Positions 3,659 through 52,940 of a DNA stretch of 64,000 nucleotides are shown here, one piece after another. A program made the position numbers and the translations under genes. The notes under the pieces were generated by a model. It saw only the letters and a list, made by a program, of their open reading frames with translations. It made no database searches and had not been told where the DNA came from. Position 1 is the stretch's first letter. Every line of letters begins with the position of its first letter. The DNA is from Octopus vulgaris (taxonomy: Eukaryota), in contig OX597824.1 of NCBI GenBank assembly GCA_951406725.2, forward strand, positions 17,918,001-17,982,000. The letters run 5' to 3'.

Positions 3659-4178
3659 GTGAGCCTATAATCACTTGTTAGGGTTAATTCTACGGATTTT
3701 CTAAAGAATTTATTGCCAGTACTGAATTTTTACGACTATTCGTATCCGAAAATATAGTGAGATTTGGTTAAAGCACTTGGTGGGAAGGGGTGGGTTGGTT
3801 GGTTTCATATACCTTAGGATATCACTGGTACTTCATTTCATTGAATGTGTGAAAGACAAGGTTGGCCTCGCTTGAAATGGTTTTATGATGACGCATCTGA
3901 TGATGCTATCTGTTGATGTATCTGTTGAAGGCATCCACGATTCGATATCATTCGTTTCCGTGAAATATCGTTGGCACTCGGTATTTTTGGCAATGTGAAA
4001 TGTCCAAAGAAATACGACAGAATATTTTCTCCAGCATGCTTAAATTTCTGACCGCTCGTCGCATTCTACACATAAAGTATAGTAAATAATTGAATAATTA
4101 TGCGAGGCAAAAACACCCAATATTTTCATATCGTATATTCCTTCCATGCACCCCGAGTGTTTGTTGTTGTCTGCTTGT

Positions 4179-4783
4179 TATTTCTTTACTGCCCACAAGG
4201 GGCTACACACAGATGGGACAAACAAGGACAGACAAACGGATTAAAACGATTATATCGACCCCAGTGCGTAACTGGTACTTATTTAATCGACCCCGAAAAG
4301 ATGAAAGGCAAAGTCGACCTCGGCGGAATTTGAACTCAGAACGTAACGGCAGACAAAATACCTATTTCTATTTCTTTACTACCCACAAGGGGCTAAACAT
4401 AGAGGGGACAAACAAGGACAGACAAACGGATTAAGACGATTATATCAACCCCAGTGCGTAACTGGTACTTATTTAATCGACCCCGAAAGGATGAAAGGCA
4501 AAGTCGACCTCTGTGGAATTTGAACTCAGAACGTAACGGCAGACAAAATACCTATTTGTTTACTGTCCACAAGCGGCTACACTCAGATGGGACAAACAAG
4601 GGCAGACAAACGGATTAAGTCGATTACATCGACCCCAGTGCGTAACTGGTACTTATTTAATCGACCCCGAAAATATGAAAGGCATAGTCGACCTCGGTGG
4701 AATTTGACCTCAGAACGTAGCTGCAGACGAAATACGGCTACGCACTTCGCCCGGCGTGCTAACGTCTCTGCCAGCTCGCCGCC
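4179..4783 (-). mobile_element. SINE family B trimer (one head, three bodies)
   Basis: Head GGCGGCGAGCTGGCAG at 4783, B-box-like GAGTTCAAATTCC, central GGTCGACTTTGCCTTTCATCC in each unit; TSD ttgttgtctgc(t/a)tgt at 4164-4178 and 4784-4798. Confidence 0.92.
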
Positions 4784-5182
4784 TTGTTGTCTGCATGTGG
4801 CGTCCTTTCCTTCGTTATTTTTCGGTTTAAGAAACAAAGTTCAATTTTAAATAAGTCTCCATCGTTCAAGAACATGTGGTGTATCATCATGAATTTTATC
4901 GAACACAGGACGTTTTGTACGTTGAGACTTCCTTCGAAGACGTCTAATTGTCCGAGGCATATTATCCACAAAGATACTATTTCCGCAAATGATTGTTGTA
5001 GAGCGTGTATTTCACCTATTGTTCCATTGACTATCGATTTCAATGGCATTATATGTGGTGGTTGTGTTGGTGTAGCTGATGTTGGCGAGGCTGCTACTGT
5101 TGCTGTAGATTCCATTATTCTTGTTAAGTATAAAGCCGACAAGTTTGCTGGTGCCGGTTAGAGAAATATCTGTAGAGATGGT

Positions 5183-8130: not shown

Positions 8131-9190
8131 TATTCTTTCTACTATAGACACAAGATCTGAAATTTGGGGTGAGGGATAAAGTTGATCGCATCGACCCCAG
8201 CATTTGATTGGTATTTAATTTATCGATCCCGAAAGGATGAAAGGAAAAGTCGACCTCGGCGGAATTCGAACTCAGAACGTAAAGGCAGACGAAATGACAA
8301 CGATTCTGCCAGCTCGCCGCCTTTGATTTATCAGTAATAATGGTTTCAGATATTGCCACGAGGGCAGCAATTTTGGGGGAGGGGAGAAGTCGACTTCATC
8401 GACACCAGTATGTCACTGTTACTTAATATATCGACCTCCAAAGAATAACAGGCGAAGTCGACCTCGGCGGAATTTGAACACAGAACGTAGAGACAGACGA
8501 AATACAGCTAAGCATTTCGTCTAGTGCGACAACGTTTCTCTTCTTTTCTTGTCTACTCTAGGCACAAGGCTCGAAATTTTTGGAGAAGGGGCTGGTGGAT
8601 TAGATCGACCCCAGTACGAAACTGGTACTTAATTTATCGACCCCGAAGGGATGAAAGGCAACTACGATCTCGGCGGATTTGAACTGAGAACGTAAAGATA
8701 GACGAAATTTCGCTAAGCATTTCGCCCGGCGCACCAACATTTCTTATTTCTTTATTGGTCACGAGGGGCTAAACATAGAGGGGACAAACAAGGACAGACA
8801 AACGGATTAAGTGTATTACATCGACCCCAGTGCGTAACTGGTACTTAATTTATCGACCCCGAAAGGATGAAAGGCAAAGACGACCTTGGCGGAATTTAAA
8901 CTCAGCGTAACGGCAAACGAAATACCGCTAAGCATTTCGTCCAGTGCGCCAACGTTTCTCATTTCTTTACTGCCCACAAGGGGCTACACACAGGGTGGAC
9001 AAACAAGGACAGACAACCGAATTAAGTCGATTTTATCGACCCCAGTGCGTAACTGGTGATTAAGTTCTCGACCCCTAAAGGATAAAAGGCAAAGTCGACC
9101 TCGGCGGAATTTGAACTCAGAACCTAGCGGTAGACGAAATACGGCTACGCATTTCGCCCGGCGTGCTAACGTTTCTGCCAGCTAACCACC
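8131..9190 (-). mobile_element. SINE-B cluster: single copy (8131-8321) plus mixed-tail tetramer (about 8335-9190)
   Basis: Five occurrences of the B central domain; internal junctions at gaaa(c/t)gtt; 21-bp TSD-like repeat at 8322-8342 and 9191-9211. Confidence 0.9.
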
Positions 9191-9278
9191 TTTGAGCTAC
9201 CAGTAATAATGATGTGACTTTTGCGCGCTTTGTAGCAGGTCGGAATGTCATATGAGAGTGCTGTCATATTTCACCAGA

Positions 9279-11563: not shown

Positions 11564-12081
11564 ATACATATATACACGTATACATATAAGTATACTTTAT
11601 ACATATCTACATATCCATACGGACACGCACTCACACACAGTGATGTATATAAATACATATATACATAAATAAAAAAATTGTATTTATTACAGTATACGAA
11701 TTGTATTCTGTATGTTCTCTGTATAAATTTTCAATGATTAATATAAATGATTGTCCGTGTAAAACATATTACAGTTTTTATGTACTTATATATTCATATT
11801 CGTAACATCTCCCACTATTTCATATATTTATATACATATATGTGTGTATATTTATATATGCATAATTATATATGTTTTTATATCAATATATATATATTTG
11901 TGTTTGTATTTATATATTTATGTATATGTGTATATACCTGTCAGCCAGTATACCTTGTACTGATCATTCCTTACTGAATATAATTTAAATTACCTCTGTA
12001 TATGTCCCCTGCGAACATATTTGGTATGACATATTTTTGGTAGTTTGTACTATTTGTCATATAGATACATTTTCATAGATA

Positions 12082-12467
12082 TGTTTCTTTATTAGCCATA
12101 TAGGGCAGAACACAGAGGGGACAAATTACAAAGTAGAGCTTTTCTTTTTGGGGAGAAAAAGATAAAAATAAAAAGTAGGGTTGGTTTTTCGAACAAAAGG
12201 GATCGTAAGAAGAGAGAAACAACGATCAATAGAGATCGAGTATCACAGAAATTTCATGATGTAAAGTGTAAAGGGGGAAGCAGGTAAGGCTTATCCGTGG
12301 AAAGAAAAGCCTACGGAAAAGACCACGGTAACCTCGATCAATAGTGTCACATGTTAATGCATTTATTTGCAAGTAAGTAACTCTCTGTTTTAAATTTTTC
12401 TGGGTGCATAGGATTATGCTCAAGGTGGATTCGTCATTCATACGTGCCATCCTTGCTACATTCACCC
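12082..12467 (-). mobile_element. Short 3' fragment of the Tx1/L1-clade LINE
   Basis: Encodes NVARMARMNDESTLSIIL, matching the end of ORF 28049-28921, and shares its 3' UTR; exact 17-bp TSD ATACATTTTCATAGATA at 12065-12081 and 12468-12484. Confidence 0.9.
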
Positions 12468-12849
12468 ATACATTTTCATAGATAATTTAGATCTTCCATT
12501 GCAAGACTATTTCTACATAATCTGTTTTCCATCAAACTCACTTGATCCTCATTTTAAGCAATCTCATATTACTCTTACTTCTTTTATAACCGTGTGTGAG
12601 TGTGGGTGGTTGTATGCAATGACAAACTAGACAACAATCTGAAGTGATGAAACATTCCCTTTTGTTTTTCCAGTGAATACAACAATTCAGAATGCACAAC
12701 CTGGCGCTAAATATTTGATTTTAGTTGACTCCAGCATCGGAACAAATTTCATGCAAGCATGAAGAGGCACGCTGGCAAAACGACGCTGCACTAAACGAAA
12801 ATTTAATCTTCCATTGTGGTTTTGTAGCACGGAACAAAGCGAACCATAT

Positions 12850-13050
12850 ATATATATATATGTATGAGTGTGTATATGTTTGTGTGTTTCTGTTTATGTC
12901 GCCGTAACGTATCGGTTCGACAAAAGAGACTGATAGACTAAGTACTAGGCTTACAAAGAAGAAGGAAGTCCTGGGATCGATTTCCTCGACTAAAGACGGC
13001 GCTCCAGCATGGCCGCAGACAAATGACTGAACCAAGTAAAAGAGTAAATA
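12850..13050 (+). mobile_element. SINE-A 3' half
   Basis: gtactaggcttacaaagaa...ctccagcatggccgcag...gtaaaagagtaa. Confidence 0.8.
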
Positions 13051-13368
13051 TTAAAAAGAGAGAGTATAGTGAGTGCTAGATCAAGGCAGCCAAACAGACA
13101 CTCGCCCTAAAATCGTTGACCTTTTGCTAATACGTGGAACCCCCTATTATTTCCACATCATTACCATTATTAATAAAATTATCATCAACATCGTTACATC
13201 AGCATCTTTATCGTTATGAATATGATCACCATCATAATTTTCGCTATCCTCTACATCCTCATTAATCTAATATTGGGGTTTTTAATGTTTCCTATTATAT
13301 TTACCTTCTTCTCTCTCCTCCCAACCACAATACGACATTAAAGGTAATAAAGCAATAAATTAACTCAC

Positions 13369-22841: not shown

Positions 22842-23260
22842 GGCGTAGGAGTGGCTGTGTGGCAAGTAGCTTGCTAATGAACCATATGGTTCCAGGTTCA
22901 GTCCCACTGCATGGCACCTTGGGCAAGTGTCTTCTACTATAGCCTCGGGCCGACCAAAACCTTGTGAGTGGATTTGGTAGACGGAAAATGAAAGAAGCCC
23001 GTCGTATATATGTACATATGTGTGTGTATGTGTTTGTGTGTGTGTGTGTATCTGTGTTTGTCCTCCCCCATCATCACTTGACAACTGATGCTGGTGTGTT
23101 ACGTCCCCGTAACTTAGCGGTTTGGCAAAAGAGACCGATAGAATAAGTACTAGGCTTACAAAGAGTAAGTCCTGGGGTCGATTTGCTCGAATAAAGGCGG
23201 TGCTCCAGCATGGCCACAGTCACATGACTGAAACAAGTAAAAGAGTAAAAGAGTAAAGAG
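22842..23260 (+). mobile_element. Full-length SINE-A
   Basis: Complete head, internal microsatellite and (GTAAAAGA)n tail; inserted between (TA)n tracts. Confidence 0.93.
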
Positions 23261-27512: not shown

Positions 27513-27584
<72 letters not shown>

Positions 27585-27585
<1 letters not shown>

Positions 27586-28920
27586 GTTTCTTTATTGGCC
27601 ACACAGGGCTGCACACAGATGGGACAAGTTACAAGGTAGAGCTTTTCTTTTGGGGGATGAAGAGAACAAAAAACAAAAGAAAAAAAGGGGGTGGCGTAGG
27701 TTTTCGATAAAGAGGGATCGTAAAAGGGAAGAAAAGAACAAAAACAAAAAAAAATTGAATAAAATGAAAAGAATAAAAAGAAAAAAAAAGAAGAGGAAAA
27801 GGAACAAAAGGAAAGAGAAATGAAAAAAGAAGAAAAAAGGGGAAAAAAAGGGGAAGAGGAAAAAAAAGAACGATCAATAGGGATCGTGTATCACAGTGTT
27901 ATGATATATGGTGTAAAGGGGAAAGCAAGTAAGGTTTATCCGTGGGAAGAAAAGCCTACGAAAAAGACCACGGTAACCTTGGTCAATATTGTTATATGTT
28001 ACCACATTTGTTTGCAAGTGGGTAACCCTCTGTTTTCAATTTCTGGGTTCATAGGATTATGCTCAAGGTGGCTTCGTCATTCATACGTGCCATCCTTGCT
28101 ACATTCACCCATCTTTTTTTTAAACATTCGCTAGACAAAACTTGCCTCTCTACTCTCACTTTCCTTTTCAAGTGGTACTTGAAGAAGTTGATGAGAGATT
28201 GACCAGAGAGGAAAGTGTTTGTCTCCAATCCTTTCAGACGCGTCCACCAGATACATTCTTTCGCCATAGCCACAAGGATGATGAAAATAGCTCTTCCTTC
28301 CCGTTTGAAGGAAGGAGGCGTGACAATATTGACGATAGACTCAGCTGATAAACCGACTCGTCCCACACGTGACAGCAGTTGTTCGACATAAGCCCACAGG
28401 TCGGAAATTGTTGGACACTGCACGAGTGCGTGCAGAACAGTTTCGTCGCTCTGACTGCATCTCGGGCAGGTCGGCCCCGTGTTTCTCAAGCCGTGTCTGT
28501 AGAGCTTATCCCGAACGGGTAGCGCTTCTCGGTAGCACTGCCAGGCCAGGGATCTCTGGAAGTTTTCCATGGGCCCTGGCCCGAAAGTCGTCCTGAACAG
28601 GCGGGCCAGGTACTCCTCGTCGACGTCCAGGTTCGCCCCGAGCTCGTCGTCGTACCTCCCCTCCACTAATCCCCTATAGAATGCTTTGGTTGTGTTGAAG
28701 TCACTCAAGGTCGACCCGGGACGGCAGAGTTGCTTGAGAGCAACGCGACACTCGCGGTGCCAATCGCCCTTCCTCGGCCTCGTTTTGATCCACGACTGAA
28801 GTTCGGTCATGGAGACGAGCTGCGGGAAAGCGTGCCTCACAAACGGCGACCACACCTGTTCACCGTCGTCTTCATAGAGCCAGAGATGTCGCAGTCTCAG
28901 CGCGTGTCTGCGCATCATCA
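27585..28920 (-). mobile_element. 5'-truncated Tx1/L1-clade LINE
   Basis: GC-rich ORF end plus pyrimidine-rich 3' UTR ending AATAAAGAAAC; GATA repeats on both flanks. Confidence 0.9.
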
Positions 28921-28921
28921 T
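28049..28921 (-). CDS. C-terminal part of LINE ORF2 with zf-RVT (CCHC) domain; transposon-derived and 5'-truncated
   Basis: Uninterrupted 290 codons containing AW...EALPVRDKL...CPRC...ETVLHALVQC...W...IWWTR, the L1/Tx1 zf-RVT signature. Confidence 0.88.
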   Translation of the reverse strand: MMMRRHALRLRHLWLYEDDGEQVWSPFVRHAFPQLVSMTELQSWIKTRPRKGDWHRECRVALKQLCRPGSTLSDFNTTKAFYRGLVEGRYDDELGANLDVDEEYLARLFRTTFGPGPMENFQRSLAWQCYREALPVRDKLYRHGLRNTGPTCPRCSQSDETVLHALVQCPTISDLWAYVEQLLSRVGRVGLSAESIVNIVTPPSFKREGRAIFIILVAMAKECIWWTRLKGLETNTFLSGQSLINFFKYHLKRKVRVERQVLSSECLKKRWVNVARMARMNDEATLSIIL

Positions 28922-28930
28922 AGATAGAAA

Positions 28931-29160
28931 GGCGGTGAGTTGGTAGAATCGTTAGCACGCCGGGCGAAATGCTAGGCTGTATTTCGTCTGCCGTTACGTT
29001 CTGAGTTCAAATTCCGCTGTGGTTGACTTTGCCTTTCATCCTTTCGGGGTCGATAAATTAAGTACCAGTTACGCACCGGGGTCGATGTAATCGACTTAAT
29101 CCGTTTGTGTGTCCTTGTTTGTCTCCTCTGTGTTTAGCCTCTTGTGGGTAGAAAAGAAAT
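28931..29160 (+). mobile_element. Full-length SINE-B followed by (AGAT)n
   Basis: Head ggcggtgagttggtagaatcg through tail aaagaaata. Confidence 0.92.
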
Positions 29161-29166
29161 AGATAT

Positions 29167-29750: not shown

Positions 29751-29981
29751 GGCGGCGAGCTGGCAGAACCGTTAGCACGCCGGGCGAAATGCGTAGCCGT
29801 ATTTCGTCAGCCGTTACGTTCTGAGTTCAAATTCCGCCGAGGTCGACTTTGCCTTTCATCCTTTCGGGGTCGATAAATTAACTACCAGTTACGCACCGGA
29901 GTCGATGTAATCGACTTAATCCCTTCGTCTGTCCTTGTTTGTCCCCCTCTATGTTTAGCCCCTTGTGGCTAATAAAGAAAC
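29751..29981 (+). mobile_element. Full-length SINE-B
   Basis: Close to the other full-length copies; TSD-like gatataatac(a/g)cat on both sides. Confidence 0.93.
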
Positions 29982-30621
29982 AGATATAATACGCATGTTT
30001 AACGAATAAGTTTAATAACTCTTGTGGGGATATGAGAGTTCCGGACAAAATGCAGTGTATGTAGAGTTCAAATCTTGCTGAAGTGAATATTAACCACTTA
30101 GTTTTATTCAAAGGGGTAATAACATACGTGTCATGTTTAATCTCAGATCGATGAATTTGAAGTGAAACGTCGTTTTTAACATCAATAAGAGACAAAGAAG
30201 CAGAGAAAGACAAATAAGCTGGGTCTATAACTTATCAAATTTACTTAGTTATCTGTCTTATTTTCGACAATTGTCTTCGAAGTTTCAAATCGATACACTC
30301 CATGAAGAAGTTTTAGCAAAAGTTGAAGATGGTAAGTTTCATGCACATATTCTTGCACACTGCTAGTCTTTCAGTCAGTAGCGTGTGACATTCTTACTTT
30401 TCAATAGTGTTCTCATGCAGATGGTTGAAGATTATCTCGTAAGCTATAATTCCTTTAAATGTGACGACCTACGGTGTGCATAGTTCAATTTTTTTCATTA
30501 ATGAAAGATGGATGATACGTATGTTGTCTACGATGCTATATATTGCAAACAAAACAAACCTTGCGAGCAAAACCCTGTTAAAAATCTCATATAACTATAT
30601 ATATACATGCATGCATATATA

Positions 30622-35600: not shown

Positions 35601-35625
35601 TATTTTAATATTAGCTATATGTTTA

Positions 35626-36400
35626 AGGCTGTGAGTTGGCAGAAACGTTAGCACGCCGCGCGAAAAGCTTGGCAGTATTTCGTCTGCTGTTACGGTCTGA
35701 GTTCTAATTCCGCCGAGGTCGACTTTGCCTTTTATCCTTTCAGGGTCGATTAAATAAGTACCAGTTACGCACTGGGGTAAATATAATTGACTTAATACGT
35801 GTGTCTGTCCTTGTTTGTCCTCTCTATGTTTAGTCTGAGTTCAAATTCCACCGAGGTCGATTTTACGTTTCATCCTTTCGGGGTCGATTAAATAAATACT
35901 AGTTACGCACTGGGGTCGATATAATCGACTTAATCCATATGTCTGTTCTTGTTTGTCCTCTCTGTGCTTAGCCCCTTGTGGGTAGTAAAGAAATAGGTAT
36001 TTCATCTGTCGCTACGTTCTGAGTTCAAATTCCACCGAGGTCAACTTTGCCTTTCATCATTTTGGCTTCAATAAATTAAGTACCAGTTCCCTACTGGGGT
36101 CGATCTAGTCGACTGGCACCCTCCTCCAAAATTTCGGGCCTTTTGCCTAGAGTAGAAAAGAATATTAATTATATGTTTCAAGGTCGGCATGAGCTGACCG
36201 AACTGTGAACACACCGGACAAATGCTTGACCGTATTTTCTCCGTCTTCACATTCTGAGATCAAATTCCACTGGGCTTACCGCAGCCTTTCATACTTTCAG
36301 GTCCCGTAAAATAAGTACTAGTGAAATACTGGGATCGATGCTATCGACTTCCCCCTCGCCTCAAAAATTGCTGCTCTTGTGCTAAAACTGCAAGCCATTA
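35626..36400 (+). mobile_element. SINE-B array: B1-B1-B2 multimer plus an older B3-tailed copy
   Basis: Four central domains; junction aaagaaata|ggtatttc near 35996. Confidence 0.88.
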
Positions 36401-38930: not shown

Positions 38931-39379
38931 ATCAGCGAAAATGGCTGCAATAAACGAAAGACAGCATAAGAGTACAGGAAAAAAAATTAGAATCTAGTGG
39001 GAATTGGTTCTGACCGTTAAAAAATGAAGAAAAAAAAAAAGCACAAAAGTGCTACCTAAATCTTTCCCAATAGGGGTGTTAACTGTTTTGGATCAGTCAA
39101 CGAAAATCTCAGGAAACCCACAAAGAAGCCGAAAAATAAATCCTGCGGTCTACAACGCCTTTTCATAGCCTAACGTTGCATGCTCCATATAGGACACTTT
39201 AACAGTGATTTATTCTCTATGTTTCCTTTTATAGAATTTATTGGAAGAGAAACATCTCTCTCTCTCTCTCTCTCTCTCTCTATTTTCTTCCTTCCCTCTT
39301 TCTCCCTATTTCTATTTCTGCCAACTTCCTCCTTTCCAAGTAATTCTCTGAATATTTTGATGAGCGTTTGACCTTTCAA

Positions 39380-41380
39380 TCTTCTCTACCACATAACCTC
39401 CTTTGCAATATCCAGCCAGTCTTGCCCAGACTGTTGTTTCGAGGCAAATTTCAAGATAGACTGCACTGATAAAGCCGAATATTCTTACTTGTGAGAACAA
39501 CCTTTTAACAAAACTCCATAACTTGGTAATTCCCGAAGGGTGCGTGCACCTCAGATGGCACATCCGTATTTATAGAATTTGTGTGGAACGGGAAATATCC
39601 CTCTGTAACACTTCCAGGAATGTTTTCTGGAACTTACTAAATGTTCCTAGACAGAACGTTTTCCATATATACGAGACAGCTGATTTTTCTCAACATCTAA
39701 CGCTTTCTTGACAGCTTCGGAGATGCTACCCAACAATACTAGTTTTCTACAAAATGCTGGCGGGGAAGTTCCTCCGAACGCATTACATAAATACCGATAT
39801 TCCAGATGGTAATCGTACAATGTTCATCTTCACTTGACCAGGACTTCATCTCGATCAATGAGATAAGTTGTAGAGCAAGAAATCTGAAAAAGAGCGCCCA
39901 CACCTTTTTGCGGTATGGAAAATTCTGTAAATGCCGCTGCTTCAGCGTATGTATGTTCACCAGCAGCTGAAGTGCACCGATCACCTATACACAGAGGATG
40001 TTGGCAATGGATGGAACGTCTGAGCAGCGTAATGCATCGCTTTCACACTAATTGAAAAAAACACACGCCTCCGCCAGATGAGGCGAGAAAATGAGGCCAG
40101 CTGGTCATAGATAATGGATGTTACATTTGCATCACATAACCATCGCTGTCCAAACATTCAAGGATAATTTCCTTTTTTTCTCATTTGTGGAGGGGGCTGG
40201 TTACCCCGTTCGTAACCTGATCCAAATCCCTATACATCAGGAGCTCAACTAGATCACAATTACATGGTTCTATTTGACAGAATTGCCTTGTGCTTCAAAT
40301 TACTAAGCAAGTGATTTTCTTGGTTAAATGTGCTTCTGTAGACGCCTTGTATTCCTTTAAAATGACGCCTACCACCTTGATTTCTCTGGTGTTCGAAACA
40401 TCTATGTTAACAACATCATTATGTGCCGTAATGGCTTTTTGACTAATTTCGACCACAGTACATTTCATCTGTTCCAGTTTTCTCAAAAACTACTCGAGAA
40501 GAATTACATACATACATTAGAGGACAGTCTTGATGGACCAGGGAGACCGTATACAAAATGGTCCGGATAGTTTGCTAACTAATTATATATTCGCGAACAC
40601 AATATTTATTGTGTATTTAAGTAATCCGACCTCTAAAGTCAGCTCTGACGCCGGATCCTTTGAGGATAGCCGTGAAGTAAAGGTGGTTACGCATTCTCTC
40701 ATGGGAAGACCAGGATTGCACACGTGTGCACTTTCTCGGCCGCGCCCATACGACAAGCACCAAGCAGTATTGCTAGAACCTTTGCGAAAATATAAAACTT
40801 TACATTCAGCAGAGTTATGAAGTGAAAATTATTGATTATTCCCCGATATTCATGGTCTTGTACAGCAGCACTTACATGCCCCAGCTTACAGAACAGGGAA
40901 TTCAGTTTTGGGACCAATTGTAGTAGACAGCTGGTAAGACATCTGCGAAAACGTCTAACATGCACGGATCTCGTAGGGCAGTGTCCGCTTCGAAAAACCA
41001 CTTATCATCTCCCATTGAAAAGGTTACTGCAATAGGCTCTCCACAAACCCTGCATCTTCAACCGAAAGTTGAAGGATACTTTCGAGGTAGGCAGTACAAT
41101 CCATTATCTCTCTCAACACAAGCTGCAAACAGTTGAGAAAGAGACCTTTAAAACTGAGACGTAAGCGCACGTCTTAGTTTTTCAAAAACAGAATACTGTA
41201 TATGCTGCCACATAATCCTCCGCCTCTAGTACTCATTGAATACCTTTTGTCTGTTCGTGTCCTACCACACACAATGTGCTCTGGCAAGAAAAACCTGGTT
41301 TAAATTGAATTCCGCCGTACCAATGGCACGTCGGTCGTGGTACCTTTTCTAATCGCCTCTTCTTCACTTACTAATTCCAT
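39380..41380 (-). mobile_element. Long degraded LINE (RTE-like) remnant
   Basis: About 2 kb of balanced-composition sequence with fragmentary RT-like peptides (KKVWALFFRF, GITKLWS...ICLET) in shifting frames. Confidence 0.5.
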
Positions 41381-52659: not shown

Positions 52660-52940
52660 CGACAAGCTGGAAGAATCGTTAGCACGCATGACGAAATCCT
52701 CGTTACATTATGAGTTCAAATTCCACCGAGGTCGACTTTGCCTTGCATTCTTTCGCGGTCGATACATTAACTACCAGAGAAACACCGGGATTGATGTATT
52801 CGACTTATCCCCTCCCCACAACTTTGAGGCCTTGTGCCTCCAGTAGAAGACACTTGCCCAAGGTGCCACGCAGTGGGACTGGACCCGTAACCATGTGTTT
52901 GATAAACATGCAACTTACGACACAGCCACTCCTGCGCCTA
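52660..52940. mobile_element. Degenerate SINE-B (+) fused to a SINE-A head (-)
   Basis: Junction at a shared agtagaa near 52842. Confidence 0.75.

Follow-up and report, generated by a model that had tools for sequence, protein, structure and literature searches.

A SINE of Octopus vulgaris shares its 3′ end with a lineage of L1-group, Tx1-like LINEs

Repeats in the window

Here we analyse a 64,000-nucleotide stretch of the Octopus vulgaris genome (contig OX597824.1, positions 17,918,001–17,982,000; hereafter the window, to which coordinates refer) in which a short interspersed element (SINE) and a long interspersed element (LINE) end in closely similar sequence. The LINE is a 5′-truncated minus-strand copy (27585–28920) of what we term family A; it belongs to the window subfamily and is 98% identical to a sister copy (L014) and 87% identical to a young copy (L036). 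It retains the C-terminal part of open reading frame (ORF) 2 (28049–28920, minus strand), with a zf-RVT domain at about 28394–28552 (PF13966, E 1.2e-08). The (TATC)n tract at 27513–27584 (minus strand) is its insertion site, and a TATC-like remnant is present at the 5′ junction (28921–28930). A predicted 3-bp hairpin (27598–27609, minus strand), weak and no more stable than shuffled sequence, directly precedes an AATAAA motif (27591–27596). A second LINE 3′ fragment, of an older A-type subfamily, lies at 12082–12469 on the minus strand, between the two copies of a perfect 15-bp target-site duplication (TSD; 3′ copy at 12067–12081, minus strand; 5′ copy at 12470–12484).

The SINE is present as a three-unit array on the minus strand (4179–4783), composed of one full unit and two units that begin at SINE position 51, all within a single 15-bp TSD with one mismatch (4164–4178 and 4784–4798). 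Its entire LINE-like tail, about 65 nt, occupies 4179–4243 (minus strand). Two full-length plus-strand copies stand nearer the LINE: a monomer of about 232 nt (29751–29982; B box at 29825–29835, TSD starting GATA) and a copy at 28931–29161, in head-to-head arrangement with the LINE at its truncated 5′ end.

An earlier note on this DNA had proposed that the last 41 nucleotides of the SINE are the 3′ end of this LINE, and the match it described is there: LINE segment 27587–27627 (minus strand) aligns without gaps to SINE positions 4181–4221 at 36/41, and both 41-mers are 3′ ends when read on the minus strand. When 200 shuffled 41-mers are compared with the whole window, the best score is 27, and chance is excluded as the source of the match. 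Fourteen window sites score at least 29, of which 12 are SINE ends and 2 are LINE ends. The agaggggacaa variant reported for the second LINE is seen at 12084, and poly(A) is absent as stated, with an adjoining run of A8 in 0/87 LINE ends and 1/121 SINE ends. TSDs on the 12–17-bp scale hold for LINE 12082–12469 and for the SINE array; for LINE 27585–28920 only about 9–10 bp can be matched, and the TSD length is unmeasurable because this copy sits in a (TATC)n tract. The 41-nt tail is shared, as claimed, but was drawn too short: the LINE-like part of the SINE spans about 55–70 nt.

The SINE and its tails

The SINE is 232 nt long and has a B box and an imperfect A box (judged against the general consensus). 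It displays the traits of a tRNA-derived SINE, being short and non-coding, with RNA polymerase III boxes (in sequence), TSDs and a high copy number; neither ARAGORN nor Rfam returned a tRNA within it. The label SINE-B1 used earlier was that reader's own: with its tRNA-type B box, the element is distinct from rodent B1. Its central domain may resemble the Meta domain. Since one SINE body occurs in the window with three mutually unrelated tails, the LINE-like tail was likely borrowed by the SINE. The other two consist of a C-rich stretch with a CCTTGTG loop, and of a GCTCCAGCATGGCC stem with AAGAGTA repeats; SINEs with these tails lie at 36096–36180, 36331–36400 and 52787–52860, and at 12973–13060 and 23174–23260.

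Arrays are frequent (window 4179–4783, 8747–9192 and 35625–36114; loci L100, L102, L105, L106 and L114 elsewhere). Among 88 SINE elements, 22 comprise 2–4 units, with later units beginning at SINE position 51 or 17. Eight multi-unit arrays each lie inside one TSD, implying read-through transcripts.

LINE family A

All tail comparisons were confined to this genome (2.8 Gb, 227 contigs). Searching it with the ORF2 piece of the window gave 33,942 candidates; we scored 131 of these and took the best 30, a sample biased to young copies. The tail is present in all 30 loci, the window's own included, at 37–41 of 41 positions and 360–462 nt past the stop codon. The shared tail is the true 3′ end of family A, and the concern that most LINE copies might lack it is not borne out.

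Full family A elements measure about 6.2–6.6 kb and encode an ORF1 of ~670 residues followed by an ORF2 of 1145 residues, which comprises an N-terminal APE domain (PF03372), a reverse transcriptase (RT; PF00078) and a C-terminal zf-RVT (PF13966). Human L1 ORF2p matches this ORF2 with 185 bits (residues 4–872), whereas two other RTs encoded in this genome, one CR1-like and the other a partial RTE-like sequence, reach 69 and 83 bits (the CR1-like, RTE-like and Dong-like labels used here are based on motifs). In a tree of 29 RT rows, from which one duplicate family B row and one long-terminal-repeat-type ORF were omitted, families A, B and C (the latter two described below) and their database homologues form one clade (100/99), to the exclusion of five further RTs that the genome encodes. 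Among named homologues of ORF2, the closest comes from Argonauta. By its ORF2 sequence, the LINE is assigned to the L1 group.

Both A-type ORF1s, and that of element X1 (below), contain one CX2CX4HX4C (CCHC) knuckle. ORF1 has no Pfam match and hence no Transposase_22; its single-sequence structure model (predicted local distance difference test score 35.5) is too poor to use and does not show an RNA recognition motif (RRM). Type I ORF1s, with an RRM plus a CCHC knuckle, have been linked to the Tx1 clade (PMC5203782).

We surveyed the sequence following 150 LINE ends (114 of families A and B, 33 of family C and 3 of neither), again best-hit samples biased to young copies. (TATC)n follows 95 of the A/B ends and (ATT)n follows 32 of the C ends. 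The repeat is also found at the 5′ junction of truncated copies, so (TATC)n is the target; the alternative that it is merely an element-encoded tail is thereby ruled out. Both groups exceed the level taken to indicate target preference in Tx1, a repeat in over 20% of flanks (PMC4494074). CCHC-bearing ORF1s and repeat targets both fit Tx1 (PMC4494074, PMC5203782), which is most likely the clade of this LINE, as judged from the ORF1 knuckle and repeat targeting. The RT thus falls within the L1/Tx1 group named in the earlier note, with Tx1-like features.

Two family A copies (L036 2977–5001 and L050 4486–7101) have ORF2s that are 99% identical beside two ORF1 types that are ~68% identical, which suggests ORF1 exchange. 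At L042, L043, L047, L122 and L143, double LINE ends lie 170–300 nt apart; these are young copies inserted into the microsatellite beside an older 3′ fragment.

The 3′ end across the lineage

A related 3′ end, laid out as a small predicted hairpin followed by AATAAA, is kept in five LINE families (A–E) and in an ORF1-only element, X, down to about 45% protein identity. Families B and C were found by searching the genome with distant homologues. Family B ORF2 is 83% identical to that of A, and the tail is present in 30/30 loci at 28–35/41 (one scored on a neighbouring A end); family C ORF2 is 72% identical to A and has a related 3′ end. Family D was traced from a decayed copy in a random stretch, and its ends could be aligned in 22 of 30 loci, one of which is a SINE. 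Family E and element X were found through a pattern for SINE-type tails that excludes the upstream SINE body: it gave 515 matches, 100 of which were listed and about 40 examined, and those listed were mostly SINE variants plus a recurring class that led to E and X. The C termini of D and E are about 45–50% identical to that of C. The ends of C, D and E are related, while their upstream 3′ untranslated regions differ.

In element X, the 3′ end comes after an ORF1 homologue that is 29–38% identical to the ORF1 of family A, and no ORF2 was detected in the intervening sequence. By alignment position, ORF1 lies directly upstream of the tail in 3 of 12 X loci and slightly farther in a fourth; among 13 X1 loci, 3 extend far enough to include ORF1 before the tail. 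No full-length copy of X was recovered among the loci sampled. The ORF1-only loci L337, L339, L342, L344, L374, L378 and L380 have a CCHC knuckle, ~0.9 kb from ORF1 to tail, and TSDs of 15–24 bp that often start with GAG. X1 copies on different contigs (L338 6690–7020, with a TSD of about 15 bp, and L340 6770–6990) occupy the same site of another repeat.

Several further copies and relatives were observed. Family C forms head-to-tail arrays with a period of ~5.87 kb and short (ATT)n spacers (C4:93.80–93.83 Mb, C47 and C50; loci L158, L160–L162 and L173–L176), with several units on contigs C47 and C50. One family B end (L044 244–363, plus strand) is followed by (GATA)n, in the opposite orientation to other B copies. 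Neither the fragments at L258 and L276 (45–53% identity) nor a decayed ORF2-like fragment in the window (39347–40513, minus strand; 24% identity to family C) has a recognisable shared tail. In a sea cucumber homologue (P0113), an ORF1-like part with three CCHC knuckles is fused to the RT in the gene model.

We compared the tail majority sequences of the two SINE variants with those of the families by local alignment. The SINE tail matches X at 46–47/54, E at 54–56/71 and old A at 36–37/42. Alignment scores are 76–80 for X, 64.5–72.5 for E, 60–64 for old A, 55–59 for window A, 54.5–58.5 for B, 50–58.5 for D, 47–51 for young A and 34.5–44.5 for C, against shuffle maxima of 28–36.5. An upstream TGTCTGTCC block is common to the SINE, X, E and D and is absent from A. 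SINE-type ends that lack the SINE body number 9 of 197, comprising 2 A-type LINE ends and 7 apparent SINE fragments. The proposed pairing of the SINE with the LINE family of the window is therefore not upheld, since the SINE tail resembles the ends of X and family E more closely and for a greater length. The partnership involves the lineage, in which the LINE of the window is likely a relative of the true partner and not that partner itself.

All 10 majority sequences, those of the SINE included, fold a hairpin of 3–5 bp at the same place, just before the AATA motif. Its stem is AGCC/GGCT in A and B, GCCC/GGGY in the SINE and AACCT/AGGTT in E, where the hairpin is strongest (13/14 copies versus 3% of shuffles). 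A hairpin at the shared end is a plausible prediction.

Insertion sites, age and abundance

TSDs were found for 39 of 88 SINE elements (2/435 in mismatched controls; median 14 bp) and for 12 of 19 family E copies (median 15 bp). In the SINE, in E and in the ORF1-only element, the TSD mostly starts two bases past AAAGAAA. Among 43 anchored, non-repetitive TSDs (30/88 SINE, 7/19 E and 6/13 X1), 34 have a pyrimidine at −1 (p 8.5e-5), which corresponds to a purine 3′ of the nick on the nicked strand; a purine at this place is known for the L1 endonuclease. The SINE, E and X1 thus have junction register, similar TSD lengths and the −1 pyrimidine in common. The first four target bases are GGTA in 14/23 copies of the main SINE variant and AGAA in 3/7 of the other variant; on the LINE side they are TCTY in 7/7 for E and GAG- in 4/6 for X1. 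None of 188 SINE ends lies in (TATC)n, and 58 of them lie inside another SINE; each SINE variant prefers the same 4-mers at which it nests in other SINEs.

Unselected DNA (634 kb: the window and 57 further stretches) contains 64 SINE ends, compared with 4 of A/B, 4 of D, 1 of X and none of C or E. Median divergence of the SINE from its own majority is 6.1% (n = 46 and 15). For the LINEs, whose best-hit samples are biased young, the values are 0.3% for young A (15 copies), 0.6% for B (9) and C (14), 3.3% for X1 (13), 4.1% for old A (30), 6.1% for E (21) and 15.5% for D (21). The ages of E, old A and X overlap with that of the SINE, while the young families look later. The window family likewise looks younger than the SINE burst, and its target sequences differ from those of the SINE; both comparisons tell against the proposed pairing. 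In four RNA sequencing runs, contigs stop short of the last 220 bases and are uninformative on the ends.

Discussion

We propose, with a probability of roughly 0.7, that the last 55–70 bases of the SINE are homologous to the 3′ end of this lineage and that the SINE has likely been mobilised by the ORF2 protein of one of its members through a predicted recognition of that end. The protein would recognise the small hairpin and AATAAAGAAA at the RNA end, rather than poly(A). A template switch may have joined the tail to a SINE body with a tRNA-type head, the donor being nearer to family E or element X than to family A of the window. The main SINE burst, at ~6% divergence, would be the work of an older family (E, old A or one outside our sample) and not of the young copies that target (TATC)n today. 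Transfer from LINE to SINE is the direction we infer with good support, because the end is lineage-wide, the other SINE tails are unrelated to it and family D (~15% diverged) is older than the SINE. The actual mobiliser is probably not the subfamily of the window.

Several results weigh against this proposal. Shuffled sequences of every family except E give the hairpin in 26–70% of cases, single folds are no better than shuffles in 6/7, and the covariation of a 3-pair stem (23 distinct copies) is reached by 43 of 500 shuffles and is thus not above control. The AATAAA motif could instead owe its persistence to a role in polyadenylation, and one SINE variant aligns with family C only at the level of shuffled sequence. 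Among the approximately 40 examined of 515 pattern matches, no autonomous LINE was found to end exactly as the SINE does, and an A-type upstream sequence joined to a SINE-type loop has a single match in the genome. Moreover, the GGTA or AGAA target of the SINE is matched by no sampled LINE.

That family A itself was both tail donor and mobiliser, as the earlier note had it, appears rather unlikely. It would account for the 36/41 match in the window, old A matches the SINE tail at 36–37/42 and is about 4% diverged among its best hits, several old A copies lie outside microsatellites, and A/B ends are, tied with D, the commonest LINE ends in the 634 kb (4). However, family A lacks the TGTCTGTCC block that the SINE has in common with X, E and D, (TATC)n follows 95/114 A/B ends versus 0/188 SINE ends, and the best young A copies are 0.3% diverged (in a sample biased young) versus 6.1% for the SINE.

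We regard it as quite improbable that the tail is a relic, a Tx1-like 3′ fragment captured once in a SINE whose copying relies on a relaxed mechanism or on a LINE from a different clade. The SINE targets that match no sampled family of the lineage and the non-significant covariation would fit such a history, and the genome does contain RTE-like, CR1-like and Dong-like RTs. By contrast, the SINE, E and X1 all terminate at one and the same base, with similar TSD lengths and the same −1 bias, the inspected CR1-like and Dong-like representatives end differently, and there is no poly(A). Capture of a SINE fragment by the LINE copies, or chance, is very improbable: the excess of SINE over LINE ends in unselected DNA (~7 to 1; 64 vs 9) makes capture easy to imagine, but chance is excluded, the end is found in families 45–50% apart in protein, one of them (D, ~15% diverged) older than the SINE, no LINE end examined contains SINE body sequence, and the SINE body has other tails, which already contradicts this reading.

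Returning to mobilisation by the lineage, the differing targets allow two explanations: either there are several unsampled LINE families with these specificities, or the site is biased by base pairing of the nicked DNA with the RNA that follows the tail. The target is described as mainly set by the endonuclease, with cotranscription with the target able to strengthen specificity (PMC4494074). As a tentative and somewhat doubtful extension, one Tx1-like lineage with stringent 3′-end recognition might drive an entourage, namely the dominant SINE and the ORF1-only elements, with the read-through RNA of each passenger setting the first four target bases. SINE masters nested in SINEs at GGTATT or AGAAAC would then go on inserting at GGTA or AGAA and LINE masters in (TATC)n at (TATC)n, with just the −1 pyrimidine and the TSD length coming from the enzyme. 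If so, the microsatellite specificity of the lineage would be inherited through RNA.

SINEs with L1-clade tails are rare in print, as the earlier note had said: three are described among 58 pairs, from maize/sorghum and Chlamydomonas (PMC3472496), and the table in the accessible part of PMC3747384 has them in these organisms and none in animals. Like ZmSINE2/3–LINE1-1_ZM and SINEX-3_CR–L1-1_CR, which are termed cases of stringent recognition, the octopus case combines a tRNA-type SINE with an L1-clade LINE and a short common 3′ end with a proposed stem-loop (PMC3472496, PMC3747384). Unlike those pairs, it involves an animal, a Tx1-like lineage that targets microsatellites, no poly(A) or poly(T), and an end common to at least six related families whose covariation is not above control.

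As in the crocodilian SINEU–Tx1-Mar system, a SINE is linked to Tx1-clade LINEs (PMC4494074). SINEU has small nuclear RNA heads and poly(A) tails and is linked to Tx1-Mar by target only, and no LINE with its 3′ end is detected in the available text of that source, whereas the octopus SINE shares the tail and not the target. Insertion into microsatellites recalls Kibi, Koshi and the crocodilian Tx1 families (PMC4494074), although the repeat units differ, being (TATC)n for A and B and (ATT)n for C and D; the likeness is one of target type. Element X resembles the HAL1 elements, ORF1-only L1 derivatives (PMC5786205, PMC4494074), in having ORF1, then the 3′ end and no detected ORF2; it differs in its Tx1-like lineage, its mollusc host and a tail common to a SINE.

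Mollusc SINE–LINE pairs likewise combine one SINE body with exchangeable tails, with homology over 35–61 bp at 72–95% identity; their partners are CR1, CR1-Zenon, L2 and Nimb, and Tx1 is mentioned 0 times in the accessible text of those reports (PMC11481361, PMC4824008). CR1, L2 and Nimb are also the partners in PMC4758252. For O. vulgaris, 13 active L1-Tx1 families have been reported, with no SINE partner named in the available part of the source, and SINEs make up 11.6% of the genome, with 893 of 900 recently active families unclassified (PMC13282606). No animal SINE with an L1/Tx1-derived tail was found in the literature searched (including PMC8967140, PMC7245038 and PMC3531059), which left out Repbase, Dfam and subscription octopus SINE papers. 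Described partnerships of the L1/Tx1 group were thus found only in plants and algae.

It has been proposed that the L1 clade began with stringent 3′-end recognition, which was relaxed to poly(A) in mammals and plants; as set out in PMC3472496, this rests on three plant and algal SINEs. An animal Tx1-like case with many intact ORF2 copies and a series of related tails with differing targets makes the proposal directly testable. The same set of elements is a natural one for asking whether the endonuclease or RNA pairing chooses the target, and the lineage is a candidate engine for part of the SINE expansion in octopus.
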